Shown: positions 34,846 through 52,700, numbered from the stretch's first letter. The stretch is DNA of 64,000 bases from a virus (IMGVR_UViG_3300010885_049703:50260-114259), one strand, 5' to 3'. The notes: a model not told the origin generated them from the sequence alone. Made by a program: numbers and translations.

Positions 34846-35015
34846 TCTTTACCCCAATTGATTTTCAACCATACACGCTCGTGTATATAATGTGCCAGGG
34901 TCATAAAAATATTGATTATAATTGCACCACTTAATCCGGTCCATGCTGCAGTAATCAATGTTGCCACCACACGCCAAGTGATTGCTCTTACTATTGTTCT
35001 TTTGTGTAATTCCAT
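34821..35015 (-). CDS. DUF2061-like small membrane protein (tandem paralog)
   Basis: RTIVRAITWR ... HYIHERVWLKINWG. Confidence 0.8.
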   Translation of the reverse strand: MELHKRTIVRAITWRVVATLITAAWTGLSGAIIINIFMTLAHYIHERVWLKINWGKEWKQNNEQ

Positions 35016-35884
35016 CAAGTTCCCCAGGCGTTGCGCCAGATATCTACTTGTAATCTAGGACTGTATCTATAGCCACGCTTCATTGCCAACTCAGCTACCT
35101 GCGGCACATTGAAGTTGTATAAGTCAGCAACGCCGCCCGTGGGCATCAAATACACAGGACCACCAAAGCCAGCTTTGCGGAATTGATACACCGCTTCGTC
35201 AACATCTTTCAAATCATCATCAGTGGACACAACAAACTTGAGATAGGTCATGCCCACCATCTCATAACTTTTTACAACTTCGGGACGTATAGCATCTTCC
35301 CAACGCTCTCCCGAGCATGGTAGTTTTGCACTGACACTGAAAGTCAAACGATCGTAATCTCTGCCGTGTCTAGTGAATTCTTCAAACAGGTATTCTCTAA
35401 CATCTTCATGCAAAAACTGAGTACCATTGGTTTCAAATGTTATGTTACGCAAGCCTTGTTGGCGACATTTTTCGATCAGCTTGGGATATTCAACTTGATA
35501 GCCCAGCAATGGTTCACCGCCTGTGATCACCAGGTGAACATCGTCACTGATGTTGTCTGGACTCCATTTGTTCTTGGGAATCATGCCATGCATACGATCA
35601 GCGATTTCATCCAAGGTCATAAACGGTGACAGATGTTTGAATGCCGGATGCCATGACGCATAACTGTCACAGCCTGTTCGTGCCAGCGGCAAGTCGTTGT
35701 AGGTTTTGTAAAGATGTACGTCGGCAGCAATTTCGTCGGGTTCAGTGGTCTTCTCACCACGCGGTAAGCCAAATCCACGACACTGAAAGTTACACCCAAA
35801 TGTACGCATGAAAACGCTGGGCACACCAGCCCAACGTCCTTCACCTTGTAGACTATAAAATATTTCAGCTATTTTAAGTTGCAT
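35015..35884 (-). CDS. queE: 7-carboxy-7-deazaguanine synthase (radical SAM)
   Basis: EIFYSLQGEG, F.RTFGCN, ITGGEPLL, ETNGT, YSPRLQ. Confidence 0.93.
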   Translation of the reverse strand: MQLKIAEIFYSLQGEGRWAGVPSVFMRTFGCNFQCRGFGLPRGEKTTEPDEIAADVHLYKTYNDLPLARTGCDSYASWHPAFKHLSPFMTLDEIADRMHGMIPKNKWSPDNISDDVHLVITGGEPLLGYQVEYPKLIEKCRQQGLRNITFETNGTQFLHEDVREYLFEEFTRHGRDYDRLTFSVSAKLPCSGERWEDAIRPEVVKSYEMVGMTYLKFVVSTDDDLKDVDEAVYQFRKAGFGGPVYLMPTGGVADLYNFNVPQVAELAMKRGYRYSPRLQVDIWRNAWGT

Positions 35885-35908
35885 GATATTCCTTGAAAGT
35901 TTTGTGCG

Positions 35909-35937
35909 AGTATAGCACAAGAAATAAAATTAGTCAA
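35909..35937 (-). promoter_or_regulatory. sigma70-type promoter of queE
   Basis: TTGACT-N17-TATACT. Confidence 0.7.
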
Positions 35938-36304
35938 TGTCTTTTAAGAAAGGTTTTAATTTGGGAGGTTTCCAACCTTCAGGTTTGAGAACTTTGCCAT
36001 CCTTGCGCTTGTTGACCTTACCAGTTTCTGAATCAATTTTGGCAAAGTTTGTTTGCATGACTTCGTTCCAGGCAGCTTCGGCATCTACTCCCATGCTGTG
36101 CAATGCTCCGGTGGTCACTACCAACAGATCAATCAATGCATCCAATTGTTCCACTCGGTCTGCTGCCTGAACAGCTTCTTTGAGTTCATGCCATTCTTCT
36201 TTGATGAGATTCACATACATACGATACTGCTTGGGTTTGAATTCATCTACTGTTTGATCACATGCCAGCATGAATCGTTTTTGATCTTCAAAAATATTTG
36301 TCAT
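35930..36304 (-). CDS. MazG-like all-alpha NTP pyrophosphohydrolase
   Basis: LIKEEWHEL, DALIDLL, EV..TN.AK, DGKVLKPEGW.PP. Confidence 0.88.
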   Translation of the reverse strand: MTNIFEDQKRFMLACDQTVDEFKPKQYRMYVNLIKEEWHELKEAVQAADRVEQLDALIDLLVVTTGALHSMGVDAEAAWNEVMQTNFAKIDSETGKVNKRKDGKVLKPEGWKPPKLKPFLKDID

Positions 36305-36849
36305 TTAGTCCACCATTGTTCCCAGGGAAATACAATCCATTGCGGATCTGCCGCTTTATTAATGTTACATGCGGTATAATTAACATCAAGTTTGCTTTCA
36401 CTTGATTCGTTGTCAACTAGTGTGGCCACACGTACATTTGTGCCCCATATGTGATTCCACCTATCATGATTGGGCAAGCAACCGCTGGGCCAATCTTGTT
36501 GAATCCAGTTCAGTGTGGCACCGGTGTCGTTGATATCATCAACTATGAGTATGTTTTTGGCGTTGATACTATAATCAAATTCTGCCAACAACTGTTCATC
36601 CTTGGGAACGTATCCAAACGCATCTTCGGCCATCCATAAATTGCTTTCCGATTCATTGCCATCGCGCAGACTCACTTTGAGTGTCTCCATGCGCACTCCC
36701 AGGTATTGACTGATGAGATTGGCCGGAACAAGTCCACCACGAGTAATACCCACTACATAGTCAGGTCGCCAGCTGTCGTTGTGAATCTGTCTGATAATCT
36801 CCTGTGTGAAGTTTTCTACATCACGCCAGGTGTAGTATACCCGTTTCAT
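36301..36849 (-). CDS. Type I phosphoribosyltransferase (purine PRT-like)
   Basis: GITRGGL.PA, LIVDDINDTGAT, WIVFPWE. Confidence 0.9.
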   Translation of the reverse strand: MKRVYYTWRDVENFTQEIIRQIHNDSWRPDYVVGITRGGLVPANLISQYLGVRMETLKVSLRDGNESESNLWMAEDAFGYVPKDEQLLAEFDYSINAKNILIVDDINDTGATLNWIQQDWPSGCLPNHDRWNHIWGTNVRVATLVDNESSESKLDVNYTACNINKAADPQWIVFPWEQWWTK

Positions 36850-37634
36850 AGTTTCCTTGCTTTGATTAATAAATGCCAACCCAGATATTCTTTCACTGCA
36901 TCACGCATGGTATCACTCATGGCAGCAAACCAAGGTTCCAATTCATAGCGACCTTCGCGGTATGCTGGTATGTTATACATAAAACAGTGATCCTGCCTAA
37001 TACGTTCTATTTCAAACTGACCATTGAGCATCTGATAAATTTCACCTCTAGTAAATGCTTCGGCGTATGGACATTCAGCCTGTGCTTCAAACTGATCCAG
37101 CCCCTTTTGAATCATTGCATACTTCCAGGAGTTTTTAGCATACACCATAAAACGGAACTCGCCCCCAGGTGCCACTAAACTGTGAATCTCTTGAATGTGT
37201 TGTGCAATATTGGGTGAATGATGTATGACACCATAACTGTACACAAGATCAAACTTGCCAAGATTTTCTATTGCTGTTGCATCATCTGGATCAAGTAAAT
37301 TGATATTGCGGAAATCGCCATGTAAATCTAGAGTTTGGAATCGGTCACGACAGATGTTTAAACTAGCATCACTGATATCAATGCCTGTGTATTCAGCACC
37401 GTGACGCACAAACTGTTCAGCGTCAGTTCCAATACCACACCCAATCTCCAACACCCGCTTGCCTTGCCAGCGATGAAACTGTGCAAAGTCAAGTATGTGT
37501 GGCTCTACACGATAACGACGTGCAGTGACTTCTTCAAAGTACTCTACCGAACCCAAGGGTCGTTGACTGTGACGAATGTTGCAGGGTTGGCGATCCCAAT
37601 AGGATTTTATTTTTTCTTCAAGTTGTTGAGACAT
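36846..37634 (-). CDS. Class I SAM-dependent methyltransferase
   Basis: VLEIGCGIGTD, GIDIS, FDLVYSYGVIHH, PGG. Confidence 0.92.
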   Translation of the reverse strand: MSQQLEEKIKSYWDRQPCNIRHSQRPLGSVEYFEEVTARRYRVEPHILDFAQFHRWQGKRVLEIGCGIGTDAEQFVRHGAEYTGIDISDASLNICRDRFQTLDLHGDFRNINLLDPDDATAIENLGKFDLVYSYGVIHHSPNIAQHIQEIHSLVAPGGEFRFMVYAKNSWKYAMIQKGLDQFEAQAECPYAEAFTRGEIYQMLNGQFEIERIRQDHCFMYNIPAYREGRYELEPWFAAMSDTMRDAVKEYLGWHLLIKARKL

Positions 37635-38484
37635 TAACTGATCCTGATGACATATTGACTTCTCTTTTAGTTGTAGTCATTTGCTTGTTGATGTCGTTAG
37701 CTTCAAGTTTTTCCCAGGGATTCTGTTGGTTGATCTTGACATTCTCCCAAAAAGTAGTATCTATGCCCTTTGATTTCAAATAGCCGGCAATTTTTTCAGT
37801 GTCTGACATTCTATGATTAAACCATTTGACACTATGAAAATCTTCGGGACTGTCAGGCTTACCCTCCAGCATTGGACGATTCTTAAATGTTTCATCATGG
37901 TTGTTGCCGGTGAGATCGTACCGATCATGCTCAACCCACACTGGAATACGCTCCAGGATGTCCACCATGTATGCGATTTGACTCATCCAAGCGTCACTGA
38001 TCTGATGTGGACTCATATATCCAAACATATCAAGCCAGTCTCTGGGAATAATTGGAAAAATACTGTAAGGATGTTCTCTATGAGTATGCACAGCCAATAA
38101 CTTGAATTGACCTTGATACTTCATAATTTCTACATTCCAGCCTTGACTTTGCATCACAGCATCATCATTCCAGAACATTAACCATGCGGCATCGCTGTTT
38201 TTAGCTAGTTCTGTAACGTACTCATTAAGTCTAATATACCCCATGGGTTCAAAGCTCATTGCAGTATAATGTACACCTCGATCATCTAACAATGGTTGTA
38301 AAGATTCTTCCCAGTGTTTGATACCAACTTCGTCATCGTCATCAAAGCCCAGGATAATTTGTATTGTTGATAGGTCTTGAACACGATTAATTAAACTCAT
38401 TATACTGCGTGTCAGCGTCATTGTGCGCCCGCGAGTGGGCAACAAAACTGCTATGTCATACTCATATGAATGTTGTTTTTCCAT
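37618..38484 (-). CDS. GT2-like (GT-A) glycosyltransferase
   Basis: VLLPTRGR, FDDDD, FWNDD, SDAW. Confidence 0.75.
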   Translation of the reverse strand: MEKQHSYEYDIAVLLPTRGRTMTLTRSIMSLINRVQDLSTIQIILGFDDDDEVGIKHWEESLQPLLDDRGVHYTAMSFEPMGYIRLNEYVTELAKNSDAAWLMFWNDDAVMQSQGWNVEIMKYQGQFKLLAVHTHREHPYSIFPIIPRDWLDMFGYMSPHQISDAWMSQIAYMVDILERIPVWVEHDRYDLTGNNHDETFKNRPMLEGKPDSPEDFHSVKWFNHRMSDTEKIAGYLKSKGIDTTFWENVKINQQNPWEKLEANDINKQMTTTKREVNMSSGSVNVSTT

Positions 38485-38498
38485 TTATTCCTCAAATA

Positions 38499-38996
38499 TT
38501 ATGCAAATAAGTCTTCGTTCCAATGTCTATGTCCCTCGCGGAAAGCCATGTTACTTTGTGTTTCACGTACTTCTACTCGATAACACCACAAACGTTCTGC
38601 TTCACCAGGTCCCCACATATCTGGAATATACACTCCATTGACATACTTGTAAAGCATATCGGCTAGCCCCTCGCAGCCTAATCGTGGAAGAATGGTGAGT
38701 TTGGCCATGTTACGCTGTTGTAACAGTTTAAATGTCTCCAATTCTGGATCATCTTGTGCAACTAACAAGGTGTGATCAAACTGATCTTCTAAAATCTTCT
38801 TTAGTTCTTTGAGTCCACCGTAGTCAGCAGCCCAATTGCGCACATCTAAGTTATCGGTACCAAAGTAAAACTTCATGCTGAATGCATAGCCATGTATTAG
38901 ATTGCAGTGGCTATCAGCACGCCATTGCCGGTAGGCACAGGGAAAGGCATTGTGGTATTCTTTGGTACTAGTATAATTGTATGTAACAGATTGCAT
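38499..38996 (-). CDS. queD: 6-carboxy-5,6,7,8-tetrahydropterin synthase
   Basis: SHCNLIHGY (CxxxHGx), DYGGLKELK, FDHTL, VEVRET. Confidence 0.9.
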   Translation of the reverse strand: MQSVTYNYTSTKEYHNAFPCAYRQWRADSHCNLIHGYAFSMKFYFGTDNLDVRNWAADYGGLKELKKILEDQFDHTLLVAQDDPELETFKLLQQRNMAKLTILPRLGCEGLADMLYKYVNGVYIPDMWGPGEAERLWCYRVEVRETQSNMAFREGHRHWNEDLFA

Positions 38997-39002
38997 TGTT
39001 TT

Positions 39003-39065
39003 CTCCTATAAGTTAATATAGGCTTGCAGAGTTTGTATAGCGGGATGAATGCTCTAAAGGCCGCT
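39003..39065 (-). promoter_or_regulatory. Candidate variant preQ1-I-like riboswitch with SD-sequestering hairpin
   Basis: P1 AGCGG/CCGCU; pseudoknot UAGAG/CUCUG; A-rich L3 AUACAAA; CCUAUA/UAUAGG hairpin over the SD; TATAAT at 39076-39081. Confidence 0.65.
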
Positions 39066-39076: not shown

Positions 39077-39766
39077 TTATATATGGTTTTCTCGGACTTT
39101 GTCTACATTATAGGTAAACACAGTTAGATATTTTTTATAATGATGTTCGCTGCTACTGCAATGGAGTTGAGTACGATCCCAAGAAATCACATCGCCAAGA
39201 TTCCAATCAACGATTTGTTCTATAGTCAGTCCGTGTAAATCTTCTATGGGCATATAGCTCAGATAGTCATGATATGTTTTTTCATCAAATTGATGATCGT
39301 TTATATTAACCACTTGACTATAATCAGCAACAGTACCCTGAGCTAATCCCAAAACATTTGATGCACGATCAATGGATTGTTTGAGATCAAGTCTTGAAAA
39401 CTTAGTACTGGCACCAAACCAATAGTTATCAAAAAACACGGTTGATGCTTTTGGGGAGAAATCCAACGGTATTAAAAAAGATGGTCCCAAACATTCAGCA
39501 GACCACTCACGATGTGAATCCACATGTACTTTTTGATTATACGAACGTTGATAGAAGAAAATTAATTCATCGACTGCCCAATTAAAATTTGCCAACTTGT
39601 TGATAATATCAGTAACTATTTGTTGTGGCCATTCGTCAACATCCCAGTGAGGATGCTTGCTTGACATAGTGGGACGATGATCCCAAGGACCATCTTCCTG
39701 ATCAAAATAATTTTTAAGACTAGCAATATCTTCCGGGGATACTATATCCTTGTACACTTTAGCCAT
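39077..39766 (-). CDS. Fe(II)/2OG oxygenase-like protein
   Basis: HVD ... WDRTQLHCSS ... K. Confidence 0.6.
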   Translation of the reverse strand: MAKVYKDIVSPEDIASLKNYFDQEDGPWDHRPTMSSKHPHWDVDEWPQQIVTDIINKLANFNWAVDELIFFYQRSYNQKVHVDSHREWSAECLGPSFLIPLDFSPKASTVFFDNYWFGASTKFSRLDLKQSIDRASNVLGLAQGTVADYSQVVNINDHQFDEKTYHDYLSYMPIEDLHGLTIEQIVDWNLGDVISWDRTQLHCSSSEHHYKKYLTVFTYNVDKVRENHI

Positions 39767-40160
39767 TGGGATTTTTATAACCTTCTCGTTTATAATTGGC
39801 CTGTCCAGCGATTACACCACGTACCCCGCCAACAGGATCTTCGCAGTCTCCATGACGTCGGGGTATCAGATGTACATGTGGATACATCACAGTTTGCCCG
39901 GCAGCCTCGCCAAAGTTAATACCAATGTTAAATCCATCACATTCACCTTGCTCAACCAATTTGTTGCCATGGGTTGTAGCCGAATACACTGCCTCATTGA
40001 TAGTACTCACGGTATTATATCTCGGAACAAATAGTAAATGTCCTGGAGTAACTGGATAGCGATCACGATATACTACTACATGAAAATCTTCCCATACAAC
40101 ATCATCCCATGGTGCAATACTTTGTTTTTGAGCTTGTTCTAAATTATTCACACCAGTCAT
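39759..40160 (-). CDS. HIT family nucleotide hydrolase
   Basis: DRYPVTPGHLL, GFNIGIN.GEAAGQTV, HVHLIPR. Confidence 0.93.
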   Translation of the reverse strand: MTGVNNLEQAQKQSIAPWDDVVWEDFHVVVYRDRYPVTPGHLLFVPRYNTVSTINEAVYSATTHGNKLVEQGECDGFNIGINFGEAAGQTVMYPHVHLIPRRHGDCEDPVGGVRGVIAGQANYKREGYKNPNG

Positions 40161-40371
40161 CGCTTTCCATGTAAACAGATGCTTGTTCACGAGCAGATTC
40201 TATGCTTTCTGCAACAACAGTGAGAGTAGCAACACCGTGTTTGATATGAATGTCAAACGGCACACGGCCCATGGGCAACCAACCATCGTCAACTCGCAAA
40301 CGAACTTTGTAGCTACGCATTTGTTGTGCTCGGCTTATGATTTCTTGAGTATAGTCGGCTGCTGTTTTCAT
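40144..40371 (-). CDS. Hypothetical protein
   Basis: Coupled ORF. Confidence 0.6.
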   Translation of the reverse strand: MKTAADYTQEIISRAQQMRSYKVRLRVDDGWLPMGRVPFDIHIKHGVATLTVVAESIESAREQASVYMESDDWCE

Positions 40372-40996: not shown

Positions 40997-41764
40997 TCAT
41001 CTAGGCGCAAACTCTTGTTGTAGTTTGATATTGTCCATGAACTCTTTCTTGACACTGGGGTCATCTTTGAATGCACCTGTTAGCACAGTGGTTTGTGTCA
41101 ATGAACTATGTGCCATGATGCCGCGATTCTCACAGCAACCATGTGTGGCTTGTATGTACACACCTACGTTTTTACTGCCAGTGGCCTTCATGATCTCTCT
41201 AGCGATATCATTGCACAACTCTTCTTGTAGTGTGCCACGGCGAGCACACCACTGAGCAATGCGAGTATACTTGCTCAAACCAATGAGCTTTTGAGCAGCA
41301 ATGATTCCAATGTATGCAACTCCGCTGACTGGTTGATGATGGTGACTGCACATACTACGAAGCTCGCTGCGAACAACCAGCATGCCTTCATAACGGTCTG
41401 TTGTGTCGTTTGGAAATGCTGTTGCATCTGGAGCAGGTTCGTATCTTCCTGCCATGATTTCGTTAAAGTACATCTTGGCTAATCTACGTGCTGTGCCTTG
41501 ACTGTTAGGATCTGTTTCGCGATCAATCAGCAATCGATCTAGCACAGTTTCAAATGCTTCTTCGGCTTCGTCAATTAGTCTAGATTTCTGATCGTCATTA
41601 ACATAACCACTGATGTTATCACCGGCCCAGAAACGTTTCTTATCATGTTTCATTTGGGTACGTATTGCATCAGCTAGATATGATTCTTGATAATCTTTAT
41701 CACCTGCTGTTGTATTTGACGTCGGTTCGTCATCGCCGTCTACATACATTTTTTCATATACCAT
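40997..41764 (-). CDS. folE: GTP cyclohydrolase I
   Basis: TARRLAKMY, SMCSHH, GLSKYTRI, RGTLQE, HGCCENRG. Confidence 0.97.
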   Translation of the reverse strand: MVYEKMYVDGDDEPTSNTTAGDKDYQESYLADAIRTQMKHDKKRFWAGDNISGYVNDDQKSRLIDEAEEAFETVLDRLLIDRETDPNSQGTARRLAKMYFNEIMAGRYEPAPDATAFPNDTTDRYEGMLVVRSELRSMCSHHHQPVSGVAYIGIIAAQKLIGLSKYTRIAQWCARRGTLQEELCNDIAREIMKATGSKNVGVYIQATHGCCENRGIMAHSSLTQTTVLTGAFKDDPSVKKEFMDNIKLQQEFAPR

Positions 41765-41769: not shown

Positions 41770-41831
41770 CTCCGAGTTTTAGACGTGGATGTCTATAGGT
41801 TAATTATAAACATATTTAGATCACTTGTCAA
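41770..41831 (-). promoter_or_regulatory. Consensus promoter plus candidate SD-pairing pseudoknot leader of folE
   Basis: TTGACA-N17-TATAAT; UAGAC-AUCCAC-GUCUA-AAACUC-GGAG. Confidence 0.6.
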
Positions 41832-42972
41832 GCCCAAGTTCTTCTTCTAGTTGGCGAACTGGAGAACTCCAGTCATTGGTGAAGTTTCTTATGTACTGAA
41901 TGTTATCTAAATCTTTCTGGGTTTGTAAAACAATTTCTTCATTGGCAAAGTGTATGACCAATCCTCGACGTAAGGCAGTTTCCAAAAGTTCCTGGCGATA
42001 GTCATTGTCATCGGGTAAACTGAAAATACTAAACATGATGAGATGATTGACATTGCTGGTGTGAATCATGCTTTTCAAATGTGCATGATTTAGTCCTTCG
42101 TTCTCACCGTGTTGATAGGGAAACTTGTATCCTTTCTTGGTACAATAATGTCGAACTGCCAAGGTTTGGAAATGCAGATCAATGTTGCGTGTTTTGACAC
42201 CATCGTACTCCATGTAGCACACTACAATATCTTTGGATTCATCAATAGATACCACTGCTTCTGAACTTTGATCGTGCAGTGGTCTAAAATATGCACCAGG
42301 CCATTTGCGGTGTGGCTGACCATCTCTAACCAGCAATCTGATATCAATACTGACACGAGTCTTATCAGTGCGGTTGGGAATATTGCCATGAATGTGTTCT
42401 TGGAAGAACAAATGCGCCTGACCAGGTTGCAATGTAATTGGCCAACTGTTGTCAGCACAAGTAGAGTCTAGGTATTCATAGCTCCAGTTTTCGCGTTTGG
42501 CCTGGCGTGTTATTTCCCTACTCTTATCCAGATCCATGATCTGCATTGAGTTAGATTCAAAACATGGAGTGAACGGCATCCACACAGTTCTAAGTCCAAG
42601 TCCGTTGCCTACCCACCGGCCTTGATGGAAGATCAACACAGCACCAAACTTGTCTTGATTGGGTATCAAGATTCGTAAGTTACCAAATTTTTGAATTAAC
42701 ACATCGGTGCCCAGTTGTGGAACAACATGCTCAGATACAATTTCATCAAAGTGTTGATAAAAATCAGTTTTCAGCAAGGCATGACTCACAGTGTTTTGAA
42801 CACGTTGTATGTCATGCGGTGGAATAACTTCATGTAGTGTATCCAGTGATGTGGCATTGGGATACAATTTTTGAATCTCACCTAAAATGATAGCCGGCAT
42901 GGGATGCTGGCCTAGATCATAATCTAAGGTTTGATTATCAAATGCTGCTTGGTCTTGAGTCAATTGTGTCAT
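41821..42972 (-). CDS. Fe(II)/2OG enzyme with HxG site (candidate halogenase), fused to a LIC12192-like carbohydrate-cluster domain
   Basis: FHQG in place of HxD; TVWMPF; HGN..N.T..TRVS.D.R; C-terminal YC...FSIFSLP...HFANE domain. Confidence 0.65.
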   Translation of the reverse strand: MTQLTQDQAAFDNQTLDYDLGQHPMPAIILGEIQKLYPNATSLDTLHEVIPPHDIQRVQNTVSHALLKTDFYQHFDEIVSEHVVPQLGTDVLIQKFGNLRILIPNQDKFGAVLIFHQGRWVGNGLGLRTVWMPFTPCFESNSMQIMDLDKSREITRQAKRENWSYEYLDSTCADNSWPITLQPGQAHLFFQEHIHGNIPNRTDKTRVSIDIRLLVRDGQPHRKWPGAYFRPLHDQSSEAVVSIDESKDIVVCYMEYDGVKTRNIDLHFQTLAVRHYCTKKGYKFPYQHGENEGLNHAHLKSMIHTSNVNHLIMFSIFSLPDDNDYRQELLETALRRGLVIHFANEEIVLQTQKDLDNIQYIRNFTNDWSSPVRQLEEELGLDK

Positions 42973-44744
42973 AGTGTTTCCATCCTATTTTTAATAAGTC
43001 CTTTTCTTCTTGCAGTGTAAAAATCCCCAGTTGGACTTGAACTTCTGGCAGTGAATTTATACATAGTAGATTCATGAGCTCCTGTTATTATATTATAACT
43101 GGTTGTCAAAGTCAACGGATACTGTTGATCAAAGTCAACAATAAACCCGCGTTGTAATTCAATCAAATCTTGGTCAACTTCTGTCAACATTGACAGAGCC
43201 GACAACGCCAACTCGGCAGCGTCTTGTTGATGCTGGTACATGAATTCATAACTGATGCTATGAATTGCATGCCCTCCCACTCCATCAATCACTCCTTGTG
43301 TGAGATACCGATGTGTTTTGCTACGCACAGTATGATAATGTTCTTGAAATACTGTACTAGTGGATATCAATTTAAATAACTGATCATACAACGTTTGATA
43401 GGCAATATTTTTAACTTGTCGAGCATATCTTGCAATAATTTGTGTATATCCCATGGCATGCCAATGTATGATCATCCAGGCATAGACATATCCTTCAATG
43501 ATATCGTCTGTGGTCATAGTGCTGGTGCCTGCAACGATCTCAGTTTGCTCGGCCACCGCATCTTGATCACGACTATCAAGATTCATATAATCTTTGACCC
43601 ATATGGTTTTTAATCCATACTGTTGTCGACTCTGTGCAGTGGCCAATTCACTATTCTCTAACATCTGAGCGAACCATATGTCTATGGAATTATGTTGCCC
43701 CAACTCCAATAACTCACAAAGTCCTTGAATCCACGTATGCTTGGTTTCTAATGGTAATCCGATGATTACTTCGGTGTATGTCGGCACTTGATATTGTTCA
43801 CTGAGCTGCATGACTTCTCTGATATTGTTGACATCAAGATTTTTTCTTTTGATAGCCTCTAACGTAGATTCATTCATACTCTGTACGCTGACAGTAACAC
43901 CACGCCCATATGGTCCTAGGGTCTTGGCAATTTCAAATATTGCATTGGTACTATTTTTGGCATACTGTATGTTGATGACTTCTATTGCGGAGTTTTCAGC
44001 TCGTTGTCGCATAAGCCTGCTGATCTCTAAATCTCTGTCAACGAAAATTCCAAAATTAGCATCTGCACAAAAAATATATGCCACTTGATGTGAAGCAGCC
44101 CACTCCAACTCACTGTCAACTCTTTCAAGCCCAAAGCGTTTTATTTTACTGTATGTCACTCCGCCCCAGTCACAAAAGGTACAAGCATATGGACAACCAC
44201 GGTTAGTTTCCAAGGTCATTGCCCAAACTGCATCAGGGTTTGCTGATATTATATTGTCAAACACTCCTGTGAGATACGGACTTGGTATATCTAAGTCTTG
44301 TAATCGATCAGCAGGATATAACGCATCCACGGTGTTGTTGTGTAATATACTTCTCAGTATCTTTACAAAACTTTCTTCACCTTCGGCCAGTGCAATAGCA
44401 TCAATAAACTGATGTGCATACATTTGCGAGGAACTCTGAGGCCCACCAAATATTATCACACAATCAGGAAATTTAATTTTTACTTGTCGGGCCAACTCCA
44501 AACAATACTGTTCGTTCCACATGTAGCAGCTGAAGCCACACAGCACAGGATCATCAAGCTCACAAATGACTTGATCAATCGGGTCTCGGCGAAAGTACAA
44601 TCCAGCAAGTTGAAAATTATCAACTATGTCTGTGAACTGACCGGCATAACTCCAAAGACATCCGGCACTGTAAGGTAACCAATAATTAGGCTTGTTCTGA
44701 AACTCTACAACATATTGCGGTTGAAACAAGTATACATTCTTCAC
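42969..44744 (-). CDS. B12-binding domain radical SAM protein
   Basis: LPYSAG.LW.YA, GFSCYMWN, GGP, EGE, ETNRGCPYACTFCDWG, DANFG; GTG start coupled to the upstream stop. Confidence 0.9.
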   Translation of the reverse strand: MKNVYLFQPQYVVEFQNKPNYWLPYSAGCLWSYAGQFTDIVDNFQLAGLYFRRDPIDQVICELDDPVLCGFSCYMWNEQYCLELARQVKIKFPDCVIIFGGPQSSSQMYAHQFIDAIALAEGEESFVKILRSILHNNTVDALYPADRLQDLDIPSPYLTGVFDNIISANPDAVWAMTLETNRGCPYACTFCDWGGVTYSKIKRFGLERVDSELEWAASHQVAYIFCADANFGIFVDRDLEISRLMRQRAENSAIEVINIQYAKNSTNAIFEIAKTLGPYGRGVTVSVQSMNESTLEAIKRKNLDVNNIREVMQLSEQYQVPTYTEVIIGLPLETKHTWIQGLCELLELGQHNSIDIWFAQMLENSELATAQSRQQYGLKTIWVKDYMNLDSRDQDAVAEQTEIVAGTSTMTTDDIIEGYVYAWMIIHWHAMGYTQIIARYARQVKNIAYQTLYDQLFKLISTSTVFQEHYHTVRSKTHRYLTQGVIDGVGGHAIHSISYEFMYQHQQDAAELALSALSMLTEVDQDLIELQRGFIVDFDQQYPLTLTTSYNIITGAHESTMYKFTARSSSPTGDFYTARRKGLIKNRMETL

Positions 44745-45259
44745 TGCTGCAGCCCAGTGATTTGCATAGTATACCTGGAATGATTGCCAAAGTTTCCGGC
44801 TATGTGCGTGGCAGTTCCAGTCCAGGACACCCAATCACCGGCTCTCCAGTCATCAAAGCATTGACCATCACAGTGAAAGATTTGTCCCATTTGCCAGTTG
44901 GTCAAAAATATCAACACTCTTGTGATAGTTTCAATATCTGTAACATTGTGATTCTTGCTGTATCTTCTATACAAATCACCATGCAATGGTTGTATAAGTC
45001 CGGGCTGCATGTGATGAACAACTATAAATTTTTCTTTGAGTTCAGGCCACGGATCTTGGTGCCAAAAGTTATTGGTGTTGATGTCATCGGCAACTTCCAG
45101 TGAAATCATATCCCAATAGCGATCACGATCAGCTACATCACTCCAGACATAGATATCTTCGCCACGACTGGGACTGTCAGACATATCCTTGCGTTGATAA
45201 ACCAACTGATCTAATGTCTGTTGATTCCAAATTGGATCAATATGTCCGTGTCTGATCAT
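44741..45259 (-). CDS. Fe(II)/2OG oxygenase / cupin
   Basis: PG..QPLHGD ... H.AGN.G..SRYTMQITG. Confidence 0.75.
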   Translation of the reverse strand: MIRHGHIDPIWNQQTLDQLVYQRKDMSDSPSRGEDIYVWSDVADRDRYWDMISLEVADDINTNNFWHQDPWPELKEKFIVVHHMQPGLIQPLHGDLYRRYSKNHNVTDIETITRVLIFLTNWQMGQIFHCDGQCFDDWRAGDWVSWTGTATHIAGNFGNHSRYTMQITGLQQ

Positions 45260-46179
45260 TTTATCTCTAAGTTATTGCGCCAAATTTCTATGGTACGATC
45301 TAGACCCTGTGAAAGATCAACTGTTGGCTGCCAGCCCAGCAACTGGTGTATGAGATTGTTATTGCTATTCAACCAATAGATCTCACCAGGACGACGAGGT
45401 TTTGAATCCCAATGCATGGTTCCTGACCAGCCAATTTTATCGGCAATCATTGCAGCGTAGTTATCAATGCGTATGGGATCGTTTGGTCCCACAGTCATCA
45501 CAATACCAGTGCCAACAACATCAGGATTTTCAATCACACGCACCCAGGCTTCTAATAAGTCAGTAATAAAAATAAAATTACGATAAGGAGTTCGATAACC
45601 AAGGTAGACATGATCAGGATTTTTCAACATTTGTGTTATAATTTGTTCAGTGACAAAGAAATCATTGTCACGACGGCCATAGCTATTAGTTTGACGTATA
45701 GCAGTCCAAGGAAACTCATGAGATCGATGCATGTACTCAAGATACTTTTCCACTGCTAATTTAGCTACAGCATATGGGGCATTGGGGTGCGGAACAGTGT
45801 TTTCATCAAATGCAATTGGAGTTCCTGGTTTACCAGTCAATTGCACTTCATCACTGATAGGCTGCCACCCATACACTTCCATGGTTGATGCAAACACAAA
45901 GTTTTTTAGATTGGGCAACTTGGCTGCTGCTTCAATGAGATTCACTGATGCCACATAGTTGACCTCACTGAAACTGGTTTGTTCGTAAAAACTTTTTTCG
46001 ACTTCGGTTCGAGCAGCCAGATGCACTACTACATCTGGACTTTGCTCTAGCAGTTCTTGTTCAACAGCCGCAAAATCCAATAAGTCACTTTGCATTGCAT
46101 AGACTTCGTGCCGTGATTGTAGTATTGGCACAAGATGACTGCCAATGAATCCAGATGCTCCAGTTACAAATATTTTCAT
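45256..46179 (-). CDS. NDP-sugar 4,6-dehydratase/epimerase (extended SDR)
   Basis: TGASGFIG, HLAA, STMEVYG, YAVAK. Confidence 0.92.
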   Translation of the reverse strand: MKIFVTGASGFIGSHLVPILQSRHEVYAMQSDLLDFAAVEQELLEQSPDVVVHLAARTEVEKSFYEQTSFSEVNYVASVNLIEAAAKLPNLKNFVFASTMEVYGWQPISDEVQLTGKPGTPIAFDENTVPHPNAPYAVAKLAVEKYLEYMHRSHEFPWTAIRQTNSYGRRDNDFFVTEQIITQMLKNPDHVYLGYRTPYRNFIFITDLLEAWVRVIENPDVVGTGIVMTVGPNDPIRIDNYAAMIADKIGWSGTMHWDSKPRRPGEIYWLNSNNNLIHQLLGWQPTVDLSQGLDRTIEIWRNNLEIK

Positions 46180-47381
46180 ATTATTTTATTGACATGATAC
46201 TTGGCTTCGGCAACGTTCTCACGATATCGATTGCTTCCTCTGTACCATTCTCGATTTTTAGTAGGATGCGAAATAATATCAACAATGCGATCGACTGTGC
46301 CATTGTTCCAGTCGCTGATTAGTCCCATGTTATGATGCGGAGCCTGTAGCAAATTACCTAGCTTGTGGAAAGCATCATCAATTGACCAAGGAACATATAG
46401 GCGATTTGGATCGTTTGCAAAAGTTTCAGGAAAACTTCTATAAGCAGGATACAGTACGTTGGCACCAAGTGTGTCGGCTTCACTTACTGTATTAGATACC
46501 CAATCTTGCAATGCACAGTTAAACAATACTCTGGTATCGTTAAGAAGATTGTAGTAATCATTTTTATTTAGTCCTTCACATATAGTTAGCAGCCCAGACT
46601 CTTGCATCTGGCGTGCTCGTTGCAGATGCAAGGGATTGTTTGATCGCAATGGACCACCTGAGTACACACAGAACTCCACAGGGTAGCCACCTTGCTGATG
46701 CCACATCTCAATGAGATCCATGTAAAACTCTGGTTGTTTCTCTTGATCAAATCTCGCTGCAAAGCCCACACGCATTGGACGCTGATCAAATGGCTTGATA
46801 TTGGCAGCGCCGCCAATACGCTCCAGCACTTCCTCTTTGCCAAATGCTAGACCACTGATATTATACAAAGGAGCAGTCCACCCCGCAATGCGCATGTGCG
46901 CTACCATTTCTTCGTTTGTGGCCAGAACACCAGTGACAAACTCATTGACCATCTTTTCATATGCCGCCATCCACTTCTCCAGCCCCCAGACATGCACAAA
47001 GTCATCGGGATCAATGCTCTGAGCCAGGCAACGAACAAAAACACGGGGTCGCTGGGTGGGATCAACTTGATCAAAGATGTACGGGAGACTTTCAATGCCG
47101 GGCTGGAACATGTCTTCAAAGTAGATGACGTCTTCGTTAGTGATCTCGCCATTTTTGTGCATTTGTACGAGATTCATGATCTGACTCATACCAAAGAAGC
47201 TGCGGCCATGTGCGTCTAGCACTTGTCCCACTGAGATGGCCTGAGTGTTGTCAATGGTTGTGCCAGGAACATAAACAACATCAAGGCCACGACGTTCGAA
47301 CACACGTCGGTTCCATTCTGAAAGCTGTAGAGTATACCTTGCTTCGTACGACTCCAGCCCCATGTAAAATAGTTTACGCAT
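46176..47381 (-). CDS. GT-B fold glycosyltransferase (candidate DNA base glycosyltransferase)
   Basis: RFDQEKQP, ALQDWVSNTVSEA (E/D-x7-E-like) motifs; lies in the deazaguanine cluster. Confidence 0.7.
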   Translation of the reverse strand: MRKLFYMGLESYEARYTLQLSEWNRRVFERRGLDVVYVPGTTIDNTQAISVGQVLDAHGRSFFGMSQIMNLVQMHKNGEITNEDVIYFEDMFQPGIESLPYIFDQVDPTQRPRVFVRCLAQSIDPDDFVHVWGLEKWMAAYEKMVNEFVTGVLATNEEMVAHMRIAGWTAPLYNISGLAFGKEEVLERIGGAANIKPFDQRPMRVGFAARFDQEKQPEFYMDLIEMWHQQGGYPVEFCVYSGGPLRSNNPLHLQRARQMQESGLLTICEGLNKNDYYNLLNDTRVLFNCALQDWVSNTVSEADTLGANVLYPAYRSFPETFANDPNRLYVPWSIDDAFHKLGNLLQAPHHNMGLISDWNNGTVDRIVDIISHPTKNREWYRGSNRYRENVAEAKYHVNKII

Positions 47382-48093
47382 ATTTTTCCTTTATAAAATT
47401 ATCTAACTTTTCTGCCCACAGTTGATTGGCATCAATGCCCGGGTGAAATCCATTACGATCAAACCAGTTGTTTGTTGTGGCAATATCGTAGATGTTGCCG
47501 TCGACGAAACAATTGTTCCAATCCACTAGTTTACACAAATGTTGATCTAAATGCAACTCGGAGATGTAATTTTGATAAAACATAAAAACATAGGGAACAT
47601 CAATGTTCTTTAGTGTATTTTGTAAAGCAATAATTTTTTGCAATAGGCCATATCTAAACTGTGTTTTGGCTTGATATCTATAGATACCGTCAAATGCTCT
47701 ACTGTCATGCATTACTGCATCGCCATTGTAATAACCCACCCCAAAGATCCAATCAGATTCCACCAACTGTTGATCATCAAAAGGAGTGGTAATTTTTTCG
47801 GGCCAGTCATTTTGTCGACGCTGATAGTGACTGGTACAAGTACTTAGACCAAACACTTCTGGGCGAGAAATTTTTAAGTCTACCCGTTCAATACCTGACC
47901 ACATTACCAGTACAATATCATAGTTGCGTTGAGCCACTGCGTTAACAGTAGTTTCGTGTATGTAAGTGTTGCCGGCACCAGCACAGGCAAGATTTACAAT
48001 ATTGTTTTGATCAACAGTATCAAGAAAATAGGGCCAAGCAATTGGCCCCCGTGAAAAACTACAACCATTAATCAATGCACGTAACTTGGACAT
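47374..48093 (-). CDS. SGNH-hydrolase-like phage protein
   Basis: NGCSFS, NLA..GAGN, MWSG..R, FHP. Confidence 0.65.
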   Translation of the reverse strand: MSKLRALINGCSFSRGPIAWPYFLDTVDQNNIVNLACAGAGNTYIHETTVNAVAQRNYDIVLVMWSGIERVDLKISRPEVFGLSTCTSHYQRRQNDWPEKITTPFDDQQLVESDWIFGVGYYNGDAVMHDSRAFDGIYRYQAKTQFRYGLLQKIIALQNTLKNIDVPYVFMFYQNYISELHLDQHLCKLVDWNNCFVDGNIYDIATTNNWFDRNGFHPGIDANQLWAEKLDNFIKEKYA

Positions 48094-49251: not shown

Positions 49252-49260
49252 GATAGCTCC

Positions 49261-49710
49261 TTAGATTTTAATTGATAGGGAAGGTTTATGGGTAGGGTAT
49301 TCAATGACACAGCCGTTTTCTCCATCTTCACTGACTTCAATTGTCACTGATCGATCAGAATAACGACTGGCTATTCGAATATATAGCTCATCTGCCATCA
49401 TCTCGCAACTTTTGTAATCTAGCGACAATACACCTTCGTTGCTAGAATACAACGACTCCAGCCAGCGTTTGAACTGGATGAACTCAATGTCGCGGTCGTT
49501 ATGATAAACATCAATGCTGACACGAAAATGGAAAATATGCCTATGAGGATTAGCAAGGAACGAAACATCATATTGGTCTCCTGTAGCCAATGATAGATCT
49601 GTTGCTGCAGCCGGGTAGCGATGGATTCCTTCCCGACGGAACGTGACCCAAATTTGGCGTGTAGCCGTTGCCATAATACGATTGGCTTGATCACGTAGTT
49701 CTTGATTCAT
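49261..49710 (-). CDS. dpdL: QueD-like T-fold protein, DpdL-type (putative CDG decarboxylase)
   Basis: LANPHRHIF = LxxxHRHxF; SCE; EVSEDGENG; in the folE/queD/queE/dpdA neighbourhood. Confidence 0.72.
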   Translation of the reverse strand: MNQELRDQANRIMATATRQIWVTFRREGIHRYPAAATDLSLATGDQYDVSFLANPHRHIFHFRVSIDVYHNDRDIEFIQFKRWLESLYSSNEGVLSLDYKSCEMMADELYIRIASRYSDRSVTIEVSEDGENGCVIEYPTHKPSLSIKI

Positions 49711-50183: not shown

Positions 50184-50497
50184 TGCCTCAGGCTTTCCAT
50201 TGTGATGATCTTGGCAAGTTCTACATTGAAATCTTGTTCAGATGTGATTATATAGGTCTTGTTTTCATTGCGATCTAATTTTCTATCATAGGTTCTAAAT
50301 GTCACAAGTGATCCACCAATGACTTTTTTTAGATTGATACGCAAGCCATCATTGAGCTCGTGTGGGTCTTCTTCTATGTCCCGTACCCGGTTGGATGATG
50401 CTAGTTCCTGTGGATAATCACCACCGGGGTCAATGAAATGCTTGTTTTGCCATGCCCATCTGCTTTTGCGTATGAACCACTGATCAAACCATTTCAT
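50180..50497 (-). CDS. Hypothetical protein
   Basis: Start MKWFDQW, ATGA-coupled. Confidence 0.65.
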   Translation of the reverse strand: MKWFDQWFIRKSRWAWQNKHFIDPGGDYPQELASSNRVRDIEEDPHELNDGLRINLKKVIGGSLVTFRTYDRKLDRNENKTYIITSEQDFNVELAKIITMESLRQ

Positions 50498-51003
50498 TGC
50501 CATACCTCGTCGTCTTTGTAGGCGTCCCAACCGGTGAAAGTTGACGCTGATTGTAAATCGTGTAGTCTGTGGCACCACACTCCTGGATTACTCTTATCAA
50601 AATCAATGTCATCTATTTTCAACACAGCATTGTACCCTAGTTGATTGATATAAGGTAACTTGGCTGAAATCATGGGAATAAATCTGCGATATTCAGGCAG
50701 TGCGGATTCCAATAGGCCTTCCGCTTCGGCAATGTCAATATCCAGGGTGACCCAATAATCCTTCTTGAGAAAGTATTTGGCCATGCCTTCAAAGTAACTC
50801 CAGTTTTCGGCACTGGCACTGCGTGGAAAACTATGATTGGCACCAAGGTAGATGTGACGAGCGCCAAAACTTTCGGCACGTCGTTCAATCTCATTGACGT
50901 TTTGTACTCCTACTACAAACACAGTTGGTTGTTGATATTGCGCGGTGTGTTCAACTTCTACACCAGTGAAAATATTAGCTGTTTTGTGACCCTGACGTTC
51001 CAT
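50494..51003 (-). CDS. Hypothetical protein (FTGVEVEHT / HIYLGANHSF / KIDD.DF...NPGVW motifs)
   Basis: Enzyme-like motifs; lies between dpdA-like and dpdL-like genes. Confidence 0.7.
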   Translation of the reverse strand: MERQGHKTANIFTGVEVEHTAQYQQPTVFVVGVQNVNEIERRAESFGARHIYLGANHSFPRSASAENWSYFEGMAKYFLKKDYWVTLDIDIAEAEGLLESALPEYRRFIPMISAKLPYINQLGYNAVLKIDDIDFDKSNPGVWCHRLHDLQSASTFTGWDAYKDDEVWQ

Positions 51004-51205
51004 CTTCGGCCTTCAATTTAGTGAGTTGATCTTTGAGTTGTAATTTAAGTTTTTTGATATCGCGTATTCGATCGTGATCAGCAATGGGATGTTTTTCTAA
51101 CTTACCTAATTGCTTTTCCAATCTATGATGCTCTCGTTCAAGTTCTTTAGTGCTAAGTTCTTCTATATTACTGCTGTTGCTCAAGTTGGTCAAGTCTTGA
51201 TTCAT
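50975..51205 (-). CDS. DUF465/YdcH-like coiled-coil protein
   Basis: LEREHHRLEKQL...KKLKLQLKDQL. Confidence 0.6.
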   Translation of the reverse strand: MNQDLTNLSNSSNIEELSTKELEREHHRLEKQLGKLEKHPIADHDRIRDIKKLKLQLKDQLTKLKAEDGTSGSQNS

Positions 51206-52700
51206 CCAAATCTCCTTCTGAATCCTTTTCTTCCACTGAGAAAAGTGTATTAAACATAGTGTGGGCATTGTTTGCCCGTTTTCCGGTGTGTCCTCGAGTA
51301 CCAATTATCTGTTCCCAGAGTTTCTTGTGATGGTCAACCAATGCCAAACTTTGTTGGCGGTCTTTTTTGGCAAAAACTTCATCAACAATGTTTCTAACTG
51401 TAATACGATCAAATGATTCTTGTAGTAGCATACTGGGCACAATACCTGAGTCATATGCACGATTGGCACGTTGTACTGATTCAAGATGCATCCAAACATT
51501 ATGCCCCATCAACAACGCATAGGAGAAACTATCCCAACTTGTCTTGCCTTCCTTGCCAATTTTATTTAAGTCGCCGGGTTTGTACACACAGATATCTGAT
51601 ATCTTCAGGCGTGCGCTGATGGGCGAGTCTTCAAACTGTTTGTGAATGCCATCCTGCATCACTGCATCACGAAAACTGCGCGAGTCTGCAGCATACTTTT
51701 TGTTGTCTGCTGTGGGTTCCATGAAGTAGTTGAAACGTCCACGATCTTCGATTCCAATACTGTGATACAACTGTCCATTGGCAGTGGCCAGGAATGGTGA
51801 CGCACAATCAAAAGAGATGGTAAAATTAGGATTGTGATAGCGACGTACTGCTCGCATGATGTCAGTGAGCAACAACGCCCACTCCAGTCTTGATGTGCCC
51901 AAGAAGTGCATCCAGTCATGAGTACCTTGCTCAAGTAACCCATCGTGTATCAGTGTAACAATTCTGCGCATCACTAAGTGAGCATCGCACATGTTCTGAC
52001 CGCCCATGCCCCAGCCATTGAAATGACGTCCAGGGTATTGTTTGGGGTCACAGTATTGTTTCATCAGGTCATACCAGCGATCGGCTTCACTGTGATTGGC
52101 ACCTTGCAACACATTCAAGAACTTTGTGCCACCTTCAGCAACTCCACGACGATGTTTGATAAAGTATTCATTGTTGTAGTGTGTGGCTCGCACAGCATCA
52201 TCATAGTCTCTGATGCCAGTTTTTTCAGTAGCACCTGGCACGTTGGAAGTCCATGTGGGAATGTCCAGTGTCATACCATAGTCGGCCATGCCATCTAACC
52301 ACTTCAGCGCAGCATCGCGTTTCTTCTGTGCCCGGGGACACTTGGGATCTTTCCAATCGCCTTCCCATACACCTTTGGCAATTTGGAATCCACCTGAATC
52401 GCACAGCAAGGTAGTATGTTGACCCCGATTGCGCATCATATCTTCACGAGGATCGTGTTTGGTCAAATCTAAATTGGCATGCCCTGCTGAGTACAATGCC
52501 CAACGGTAAGGAAACAATCCTGCTTGATCATTGAAAATGTTCAACATCTCCATGTCAGGAAGACCAGCCGGCATGCGTGTAGCATCAACATAGGGTTCAA
52601 ACCGTTGACGTCCAACATACGTACTGTAGAAACTTGATACCGCAGGAAGGAACACGGCATAGTCATGCTGTGCTGCTGTTAAGTCATGCTGGTCACTCAT
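51168..52700 (-). CDS. dpdA: TGT-fold transglycosylase, DpdA-like (DNA 7-deazaguanine insertion)
   Basis: DSGGFQ, MTLDIP, NVLQG, GWGMGG, HFLG, SFDCASP, HN; no CxCxxC Zn motif of tRNA TGT seen. Confidence 0.75.
   Translation of the reverse strand: MSDQHDLTAAQHDYAVFLPAVSSFYSTYVGRQRFEPYVDATRMPAGLPDMEMLNIFNDQAGLFPYRWALYSAGHANLDLTKHDPREDMMRNRGQHTTLLCDSGGFQIAKGVWEGDWKDPKCPRAQKKRDAALKWLDGMADYGMTLDIPTWTSNVPGATEKTGIRDYDDAVRATHYNNEYFIKHRRGVAEGGTKFLNVLQGANHSEADRWYDLMKQYCDPKQYPGRHFNGWGMGGQNMCDAHLVMRRIVTLIHDGLLEQGTHDWMHFLGTSRLEWALLLTDIMRAVRRYHNPNFTISFDCASPFLATANGQLYHSIGIEDRGRFNYFMEPTADNKKYAADSRSFRDAVMQDGIHKQFEDSPISARLKISDICVYKPGDLNKIGKEGKTSWDSFSYALLMGHNVWMHLESVQRANRAYDSGIVPSMLLQESFDRITVRNIVDEVFAKKDRQQSLALVDHHKKLWEQIIGTRGHTGKRANNAHTMFNTLFSVEEKDSEGDLDESRLDQLEQQQ

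Follow-up and report, generated by a model that had tools for sequence, protein, structure and literature searches.

Which modified base is written into the DNA of a phage that encodes a 7-deazaguanine pathway with no recognisable QueC and carries a glycosyltransferase embedded among the pathway genes? The question is raised by an island at positions 35015-52700 of the window, the 64,000-nucleotide stretch analysed here, which corresponds to bases 50260-114259 of the 114,259-base IMG/VR virus record IMGVR_UViG_3300010885_049703. The preliminary description of the window had proposed that 7-deazaguanine (DG) or 7-carboxy-7-deazaguanine (CDG) is inserted into the DNA and may then be glycosylated or otherwise tailored. 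The island is, very probably, a QueC-less 7-deazaguanine DNA-modification system of the DpdL type and its target is likely to be DNA, a part of the proposal that holds by homology and genomic context. The explanation that best accounts for the whole locus, such a module with a GT-B glycosyltransferase of its own that adds a sugar, is favoured with modest confidence. Of the tailoring proposed, a role for the GT-B enzyme gains support, as it appears locked to the DpdA-like and DpdL genes, whereas the more exotic tailoring genes are unconserved and their family matches suggest sugar rather than base chemistry.

CheckV estimates the 114-kb record to be ~33% complete; the full genome would then measure about 340 kb, the size of a jumbo phage. 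The nearest relatives of its family-B DNA polymerase (PolB) belong to Phosso (50%), Atu_ph07 (45%) and the 121Q/Rak2-type jumbo phages, and the source is an uncultured jumbo phage, distant kin of PA5oct, Phosso and Atu_ph07. The minus strand holds all genes between 31 and 64 kb. Close relatives are encoded on at least 599 IMG/VR contigs, the best 80 of which were compared and form, together with the window, the 81 loci referred to below. A set of 50,697 phage records was searched as well, in which a nucleotide search with the island returned no match. Homologues are found on contigs of up to 350-361 kb and the module is very abundant in metagenomes, with thousands of protein clusters at 90% identity.

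The deazaguanine core and the DpdA-like transglycosylase

FolE, QueD and QueE are all encoded in the island, as had been stated (Table 1). The QueE-like protein displays an N-terminal FYSLQGEG (FxSxQGEG) and three cysteines, C43, C47 and C84, kept in 15 of 15 sequences, while its family hidden Markov model (HMM) matches the annotated QueE of BUCT-ZZ01 (1.9e-89) and PA5oct gp162 (5e-43). The zinc motif of QueD is CxxxHGY and not the canonical CxxxHGH, a variant present in the QueD of every DpdL-bearing phage examined (the window clade, phiST, ACP17, BUCT-ZZ01, BCSR5 and RHph_I1_18). In DpdL the CxxxHGH of QueD is replaced by the signature LxxxHRHxF (Cui, Hutinet et al., NAR 2023, PMC10516641). 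Residues 52-60 of the T-fold protein of the island, LANPHRHIF, fit this signature exactly; among the tabulated family members the HRH core is present in all and the full signature in most. Its identity as DpdL, suggested at the outset, is borne out by tblastn matches to the proteins of phiST (2e-10), ACP17 (3e-36, 54%) and PA5oct (54%) and by family HMM matches to phiST (5.7e-17) and ACP17 (3.8e-55). QueC and QueF, reported missing from the window, were found nowhere in the entire 114-kb record (~33% of the genome), nor was a canonical tRNA-guanine transglycosylase (TGT), and five long relatives totalling ~860 kb hold no QueC above cut-off. In the Vibrio phage Bakedbeans, DpdL forms the C-terminal third of the 393-aa open frame of gp176 (L088:8182-9363; annotated as 383 aa), where it is fused to an uncharacterised N-terminal region.

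The 510-aa protein that had been called a DpdA-like transglycosylase has no match in Pfam, NCBIfam or PHROGs; a phmmer search of the PDB gives chance-level matches only, and its family profile reaches PDB TGT at E ~1.5. Its AlphaFold2 (AF2) model (pLDDT, the predicted local distance difference test, 91) retrieves tRNA-guanine transglycosylases throughout the top 50 Foldseek matches (E 1e-7), and VIA aligns it with the TGT (beta/alpha)8 fold over 307 residues (Z 18.5, root-mean-square deviation 4.4). The family comprises 943 representatives at 50% clustering. D101-S-G-G, H265, G268 and D298 are invariant among 54 homologues of 26-65% identity, and by motif position D101 and D298 would correspond to TGT D102 and D280. 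The DSGG, H.LG and D (SYDS) motifs align with those of ACP17 gp123, which the family HMM detects at 3.3e-11, the phiST DpdA3 being reached marginally (2.2e-4 in a 188-ORF database); PA5oct gp168 is 32% identical over its full length. Thus the fold, the catalytic motifs and the relationship to ACP17 gp123 agree with the earlier name, and the protein is termed DpdA-like and assigned to no named subfamily because it combines the TGT fold and the gp123 match with a match to phiST DpdA3 that is marginal.

The conserved order among the loci is PolB, (u312), the clamp-like u241, the DpdA-like gene, u169, DpdL, GT-B and a variable segment, followed by FolE, HIT, QueD, GT2-like, methyltransferase, phosphoribosyltransferase (PRTase), MazG-like, QueE, u132 and a 5'-3' exonuclease. 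A remoter subgroup (PolB ~62%) displays the compact order DpdL, GT-B, PRTase, HIT, FolE, QueE. The reading that the module acts on DNA rests on kinship to the 2'-deoxy-7-deazaguanosine (dDG) system of phiST and to the ACP17 DpdA, on the gene order shared with PA5oct and on the replication genes that surround it.

The GT-B glycosyltransferase and its downstream cassette

The protein first described as a GT-B glycosyltransferase adopts a GT4-type GT-B fold with two Rossmann domains in its AF2 model, for which Foldseek returns TarM, BshA, SenB, MshA, PimB' and glycogen synthase at probability 1.0 and E 2e-10 to 1e-8. The top named viral structural match is ACP17 gp124 ('Glycosyl transferase family 1 domain', 3.7e-15). 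Its sequence has no significant Pfam match (PF13524 at E 0.19 only), and precomputed PF00534 matches exist for a few homologues of ~80% identity. R204, K273 and E301, the last in an E-A-x-x-x-G context, are invariant over members of 22-83% identity and, by analogy, may bind the sugar donor. The homologues PA5oct gp167 (6e-13) and ACP17 gp124 (4e-9), 21-23% identical, each sit between the DpdA-like gene and DpdL, and in both phages GT-B overlaps or abuts its two neighbours. In BUCT-ZZ01 the gene adjoining DpdL is 65% identical to the GT-B of the window.

This association extends across the compared loci. The GT-B HMM is positive after DpdL in 63 of the 81, the others ending too soon to tell, and GT-B adjoins DpdL and a DpdA-like gene in PA5oct, ACP17, BUCT-ZZ01, BUDD/X1 and BCSR5, in differing orders, the TGT-like gene of the last three having the DSGG motif; in Phosso it lies beside DpdL, with the DpdA-like gene elsewhere. 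A tblastn search with PA5oct gp167 recovers 22 phage records, all from groups in which a TGT-like gene was found. Four phages that do have DpdL, namely phiST, RHph_I1_18, Bakedbeans and Ahp1, encode no member of the family anywhere in their genomes. By gene position, GT-B appears locked to the DpdA-like/DpdL pair in every relative that could be judged and in at least six cultured lineages with shuffled order, in line with the co-occurrence that had been suggested as a check. A gene that, where it occurs, accompanies this pair and is dispensable for dDG shows the pattern expected of an added tailoring step, and its co-occurrence makes it rather likely that GT-B belongs to the deazaguanine pathway. 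No paper was found in which a DpdL-type system is connected with glycosyltransferase, PRTase or u169-family genes.

GT-B family matches in bacterial genomes number 11, of which 10 are in metagenome-assembled genomes and one is on a scaffold of an Azospirillum isolate. Seven of the 10 keep the phage gene order, which marks them as contigs of phages that were placed in bacterial bins; the remaining three are too fragmentary for a judgement. The contigs L092-L096 and L102, from Haliscomenobacter, Chitinophagales, Phycisphaerae, Rickettsiales and Crocinitomicaceae bins, carry u241, DpdA-like, u169, DpdL and GT-B, together with FolE save on the truncated L095; two such contigs in one Haliscomenobacter bin may be a weak hint of the host. 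On scaffold122 of Azospirillum isscasi C340-1 (L100, 7950-10685) a GT-B gene (3.8e-80) stands beside a divergently oriented gene for a 521-aa DpdA-like protein (4.2e-138); the 8 kb around them hold no DpdL, FolE or QueE. True bacterial islands carrying GT-B could not be confirmed.

Start/stop overlaps chain DUF6071, GT-B, the epimerase/dehydratase, u172, the B12-binding radical S-adenosylmethionine (SAM) enzyme and the 2-oxoglutarate (2OG) oxygenase fusion, so that the segment behind GT-B is read as part of one operon. The predicted nucleoside diphosphate (NDP)-sugar dehydratase and the B12 radical SAM enzyme are both recovered by their family models. Among three Fe/2OG enzymes that had been counted, one is verified, the fusion at 41821-42972 (TIGR04324 4.6e-28), and no third was found; u229 and u172, tried as further candidates, were not verified as such (no Pfam or PHROG match). 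Among the relatives the fusion occurs in L013 and L069 only. Its 2OG domain has H-Q-G where the HxD/E facial triad is expected, and HQG is kept in a 40%-identical homologue (L069:75-995). The radical SAM gene is absent from all 80 related loci, in which the slot after GT-B is occupied by the epimerase family (31 loci), a DegT-like fragment (24 loci) and also by 2OG oxygenases, radical SAM enzymes or an FkbM methyltransferase. The NCBI names of the two families, radical SAM and 2OG/LIC12192, refer to C-methylation of sugars and to 'sporadic carbohydrate clusters'. From these matches we read the variable segment as a putative swappable nucleotide-sugar cassette that would feed GT-B, and not as a set of enzymes acting on the base. 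The tailoring genes that look most exotic lack conservation among the relatives, which limits the tailoring that can be deduced from them; what sets the window apart is its radical SAM gene, its kinase-nucleotidyltransferase, a 2OG/LIC12192 fusion that few relatives share and the arrangement in two operons.

Conserved partners, accessory genes and surroundings

Table 1. Genes and promoter-like sites of the island and its upstream flank (window positions; E-values as given by the named family).
Feature	Position	Strand	Basis
QueE-like radical SAM CDG synthase	35015..35920	-	NCBIfam QueE models 1e-13, under their cut-offs
MazG-like nucleotide pyrophosphohydrolase	35930..36304	-	PF01503 2.1e-13; phrog_671 2.1e-36
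6-oxopurine-type PRTase	36301..36879	-	PF00156 4.5e-15; 25 loci
Class I SAM methyltransferase	36846..37634	-	PF08242 7e-19, PF08241 8.6e-16; 6 loci
GT-A-like glycosyltransferase candidate (GT2-like)	37618..38484	-	phrog_14945 glycosyltransferase 3.5e-10
QueD/PTPS (6-carboxy-tetrahydropterin (CPH4) synthase family, CxxxHGY variant)	38499..38996	-	PF01242 3.8e-15; downstream of 11/12 promoter
Promoter-like site	39105-39076	-	11/12 sigma-70 match, just upstream of queD
u229, 229-aa protein, possibly cupin- or 2OG-like	39077..39766	-	lead only: Atlas language-model search DUF6445 0.94
HIT-family nucleotide hydrolase/transferase	39759..40190	-	PF01230 1.8e-11; PDB HIT proteins 2.7e-10
FolE, GTP cyclohydrolase I	40997..41764	-	PF01227 2.9e-40; downstream of 12/12 promoter
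Promoter-like site	41831-41803	-	12/12 sigma-70 consensus (TTGACA-17-TATAAT), just upstream of folE, end of overlap operon
2OG-Fe(II) oxygenase + LIC12192-family 'sporadic carbohydrate cluster' domain fusion	41821..42972	-	TIGR04324 4.6e-28, TIGR04323 2.6e-17
B12-binding radical SAM (KedN5-like C-methyltransferase family)	42969..44834	-	NF033712 5.1e-51, PF04055, PF02310
u172, 172-aa protein in sugar operon	44741..45259	-	homologues in 4-5 relatives, same position
Short-chain dehydrogenase/reductase (SDR) NDP-sugar epimerase/dehydratase	45256..46179	-	PF01370 2.3e-42, PF16363 5e-40; 4-nt overlap with GT-B gene
GT4-type GT-B glycosyltransferase	46176..47381	-	AF2/Foldseek fold; family HMM
DUF6071 protein	47374..48093	-	PF19547 1.4e-5, under cut-off; 8-nt overlap with GT-B gene
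DpdL, QueD-like T-fold protein, predicted CDG decarboxylase	49261..49710	-	motif + homology
u169, conserved 169-aa partner protein	50494..51003	-	76/81 loci, directly after DpdA-like gene
DpdA-like TGT-fold transglycosylase, 510 aa	51168..52700	-	AF2 fold, invariant motifs, family HMM
P-loop kinase + cytidylyltransferase-like domain fusion	52697..53503	-	APS_kinase 4.6e-8, weak CTP_transf_like; phrog_10255 'kinase' 1.2e-52
u241, 241-aa protein, probable sliding clamp	53504..54229	-	81/81 loci; phrog_12062, function unknown
Family-B DNA polymerase, upstream anchor	55217..57883	-	PF00136 3.1e-33, PF03104 1.2e-17; 73/81 loci

The statement that the island adjoins a clamp and a polymerase is firm for PolB, the clamp being recognised through a homologue: the u241 HMM matches a Phosso gene annotated as sliding clamp (3.4e-55) and also PA5oct gp170, and on that annotation u241 is a probable sliding clamp. 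The partner u169, the enzyme-like frame at 50494 whose co-occurrence with dpdA and dpdL had been suggested as a check, does keep their company; beyond the loci it is found only in PA5oct-like phages (43%) and as ACP17 gp122 (32%; HMM 3.4e-25) among the 50,697 phage records. It has no Pfam, PDB-profile or PHROG match, and its suggested likeness to glycosyl hydrolases (Atlas feature search 0.82) was rejected, the score being at chance level. The modules of 11 relatives contain an inserted gene for an EndoIII-like HhH-GPD DNA glycosylase that has an Fe-S domain (PF00730 4e-23); in L017 (L017:12766-13410) it separates the u169 gene from DpdL. In Phosso a gene annotated 'glycosylase' lies just upstream of DpdL.

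A second tight operon, behind the 11/12 promoter, comprises QueD, GT2-like, methyltransferase, PRTase, MazG-like and QueE. The PRTase, MazG-like, HIT, kinase-nucleotidyltransferase and DUF6071 genes had gone unmentioned in the preliminary description of the island. The best PDB matches of the PRTase are purine, xanthine-guanine and hypoxanthine-guanine PRTases (from 7.8e-9), and homologues include a BUCT-ZZ01 protein annotated as xanthine-guanine PRTase (2.3e-21) and PA5oct gp163 (1.9e-9). It looks accessory, since a search out to 9 kb from the module found none in ACP17, BUDD, BCSR5, Phosso or phiST. The HIT protein, like the PRTase and u169 a conserved partner of the module, is encoded in 22 loci of both subgroups. 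The methyltransferase proved to be what it had been called, and the GT2 stays a candidate: it has the motifs LLPTRGR and NDDA, a conserved DxD-like DD at D107-D108 and no match of its profile in the PDB, and its gene, present in nine loci and on contig L092 from a metagenome-assembled genome, adjoins QueD in subgroup B. No Pfam, PHROG or PDB match was found for u229, and no family match for u172. The kinase-nucleotidyltransferase is a strain-specific insertion with a 4-nt overlap with the DpdA-like gene, otherwise seen among the 81 loci only in L002, from the same phage; together with the radical SAM enzyme and the 2OG fusion it looks like a sugar-tailoring gene coupled to GT-B. Promoter-like sites overall are not above shuffled expectation (61 vs 50.7). 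Neither a preQ1 riboswitch nor any other Rfam family is detected in 34-54 kb at E<=1, a search that would miss a variant.

Elsewhere the window encodes an S-adenosylhomocysteine hydrolase (13055-14401), a phosphate-selective porin O/P (17258-18673), a full-length Hsp70/DnaK (25337-27265) and two further radical SAM proteins, one of them SPASM (22518-24119 and 59751-60815). The region 21789-29381 encodes a tmRNA with the tag ANAANDEVFALAA along with tRNAs, six in number (Gly, Arg, Leu, Trp, Ser, Glu); none of the six has a GUN anticodon, the target of queuine-type TGT. Upstream of the window, the same record holds a single plus-strand ORF of 4,745 codons (G000:C1:14172-28409).

Proposed pathway, alternatives and known systems

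The gene identities, folds, motifs and co-occurrence described above are observed, whereas each chemical step that follows is inference. From what is known of their families, FolE, QueD and QueE would turn GTP into CDG; DpdL, a predicted decarboxylase, would convert CDG to DG; and we infer that the DpdA-like enzyme exchanges guanine in phage DNA for DG. GT-B would most likely add a sugar to the deazaguanine, in DNA or as the free base, with the donor drawn from the translationally coupled, strain-variable operon downstream of it, here through the epimerase/dehydratase, the B12 radical SAM C-methyltransferase-like enzyme and the 2OG/LIC12192 fusion. The PRTase would most likely recycle the released guanine to GMP, which would close the loop into FolE, or activate the deazapurine base. 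That the final DNA base carries a sugar is proposed tentatively. Held more loosely still is the specific form of this proposal, in which virion DNA would contain a sugar-bearing 7-deazaguanine installed by the GT4-type enzyme, diversified by the cassette and present also in six cultured phages, which would be PA5oct, ACP17, BUCT-ZZ01, BUDD/X1, BCSR5 and Phosso. The sugar could possibly sit on N2, as in huimycin, or on the pyrrole carbon freed by DpdL, and in this strain it would be a C-methylated or hydroxylated deoxysugar.

Several points weigh against this reading. The GT-B model is of moderate confidence (pLDDT 77), and the 510-aa protein is missed by the Pfam TGT model (PF01702) and has a weak link to phiST DpdA3 obtained in a small database. 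The decarboxylase role of DpdL is a prediction in the literature, and DpdL with DpdA of either phiST or ACP17 gave no dDG in E. coli, for which the authors suggested that further, unknown enzymes might be missing (PMC10516641). DG offers no obvious hydroxyl acceptor, N2, C7/C8 or a carboxylate being the sites at which a sugar would have to attach, and GT-B is dispensable for dDG, as phiST reaches dDG without it. Conserved gene order in jumbo phages may have causes besides shared function, and the co-occurrence survey, which combined tblastn with local HMMs, is less exhaustive than a profile search over all phages would be.

In an alternative reading, unlikely on balance, the base is plain dDG (or its carboxylated counterpart dCDG), which is already described, and GT-B and the carbohydrate genes serve virion or host-surface glycans or another DNA base, their placement here being explained only by a conserved block with an insertion hot spot. 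phiST, whose DNA carries 100% dDG without GT-B (PMC10516641), speaks for it, as do the cassette that differs between relatives, the O-antigen-like 'sporadic carbohydrate clusters' of which the radical SAM and 2OG/LIC12192 families are typical, and the other cellular-type metabolic genes of the window (Hsp70, S-adenosylhomocysteine hydrolase, porin). Against this alternative, GT-B stands beside the DpdA-like/DpdL pair in unrelated, rearranged phages without other sugar genes (for example ACP17 and BUDD), tblastn finds it only in phage groups with a TGT-like gene, and it overlaps or abuts both neighbours in ACP17 and PA5oct. It is improbable that the base is made before replication by a tubercidin-like route, with the PRTase coupling CDG or DG to phosphoribosyl pyrophosphate, DpdL, MazG-like, HIT and kinases processing the nucleotide, the polymerase incorporating 7-deaza-dGTP and the TGT-like enzyme mopping up residual G or acting on the nucleotide pool. 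Such a route would suit a PRTase of the 6-oxopurine type that accompanies the module in both subgroups and in BUCT-ZZ01, weakly also in PA5oct, and that shares a tight operon with MazG-like and QueE; the tubercidin pathway likewise dispenses with QueC and proceeds through CDG with the help of a PF00156 PRTase and a decarboxylase (bioRxiv 10.64898/2026.04.15.718813). Against it stand the five phages without a PRTase near the module, the failure to identify a dedicated reductase or kinase set and the encoding of DpdA by every phage known with deazaguanine, modification being viewed in the field as post-replicative (PMC10516641). The chance is very small that the TGT-fold enzyme acts on host or phage tRNA, or that the cluster makes a free huimycin-like deazapurine glycoside. 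The fold is that of a tRNA-guanine transglycosylase, and GT4, a PF08241 methyltransferase and the deazapurine core mirror the huimycin cluster; yet no GUN-anticodon tRNA is present in the window, the gene lies between the polymerase and DpdL, PA5oct DNA shows modified G (PMC12191111), and known deazapurine secondary-metabolite clusters are without DpdA/TGT genes (bioRxiv 10.64898/2026.04.15.718813).

If the proposed sugar-bearing deazaguanine is real, DNA would have its first glycosylated base of the purine type. To our knowledge eight 7-deazaguanine derivatives occur in phage DNA, none with a sugar. The glycosylated DNA bases known so far all belong to the pyrimidines, and the literature searched yielded no example of a purine or deazapurine that is glycosylated in DNA. 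A bulky purine modification of a new kind would have consequences for restriction evasion, host range in phage therapy, sequencing artefacts and enzymatic DNA labelling. The GT-B gp124 and the u169-family gp122 of ACP17 are candidates for the enzymes that may be missing from the failed dDG production in E. coli, and PA5oct, a cultured END-nuclease target with modified G, makes the prediction testable. The DNA of PA5oct is resistant to five restriction enzymes, a pattern that points to modified G, and nucleases that sense modified G target this phage, restriction resistance at G-containing sites being the sole evidence on the base reported (2025 preprint, PMC12191111).

The DpdL-type system itself is already published, and the module resembles that of phiST in being QueC-less, with a core of FolE, CxxxHGY QueD and QueE and an LxxxHRHxF DpdL (PMC10516641), in the TGT-superfamily enzyme and the MazG-like gene that accompany DpdL, and in lying next to a DNA polymerase. 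It differs in that the phiST DpdA3 has 259 aa against 510 in the window, with marginal similarity, and in that phiST has no GT-B or u169 homologue, no PRTase or HIT near the module and, in the stretch examined, no annotated sugar-nucleotide genes. PA5oct (gp170-gp159) and ACP17 (gp119-gp126) both have the triad of DpdA-like, GT-B and DpdL; the u169 homologue adjoins the module in ACP17 and lies ~27 kb away in PA5oct. In PA5oct the order is PolB, gp170, gp168 (DpdA-like), gp167 (GT-B), gp166 (DpdL), gp163 (PRT-like), gp162 (QueE), gp160 (u132 homologue) and gp159 (exonuclease), with the same flanks as in the window. In contrast to the window, each of the two phages has a minimal module that contains no gene for an epimerase, radical SAM, 2OG, GT2, methyltransferase or HIT protein.

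Huimycin and dapiramicin provide a chemical precedent: there a glycosyltransferase, encoded beside a PF08241-type methyltransferase, glycosylates a 7-deazapurine at its 2-amino group (PMC7439116). HuiG attaches N-acetylglucosamine (PMC7439116) and is GT4-type by its Pfam domain PF13439 (bioRxiv 10.64898/2026.04.15.718813). The island shares with these clusters deazapurine core genes next to a GT4-family glycosyltransferase and a PF08241 methyltransferase, and with tubercidin a QueC-less deazapurine route with a PF00156 PRTase and a decarboxylation step. These actinomycete systems are, in contrast, small-molecule pathways without a TGT/DpdA gene, and HuiG is likened to GT-B by family only. The glucosyltransferases of T4 have the GT-B fold, and base J is a further glycosylated DNA base. 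The T4 alpha-GT and beta-GT glucosylate a modified phage-DNA base after replication (PMC13216743). The glucosylated 5-hydroxymethylcytosine of the T-even phages thus resembles the proposed system in that a phage glycosyltransferase adds a sugar to a modified DNA base, and differs in that this sugar is carried by a pyrimidine with a hydroxymethyl acceptor.

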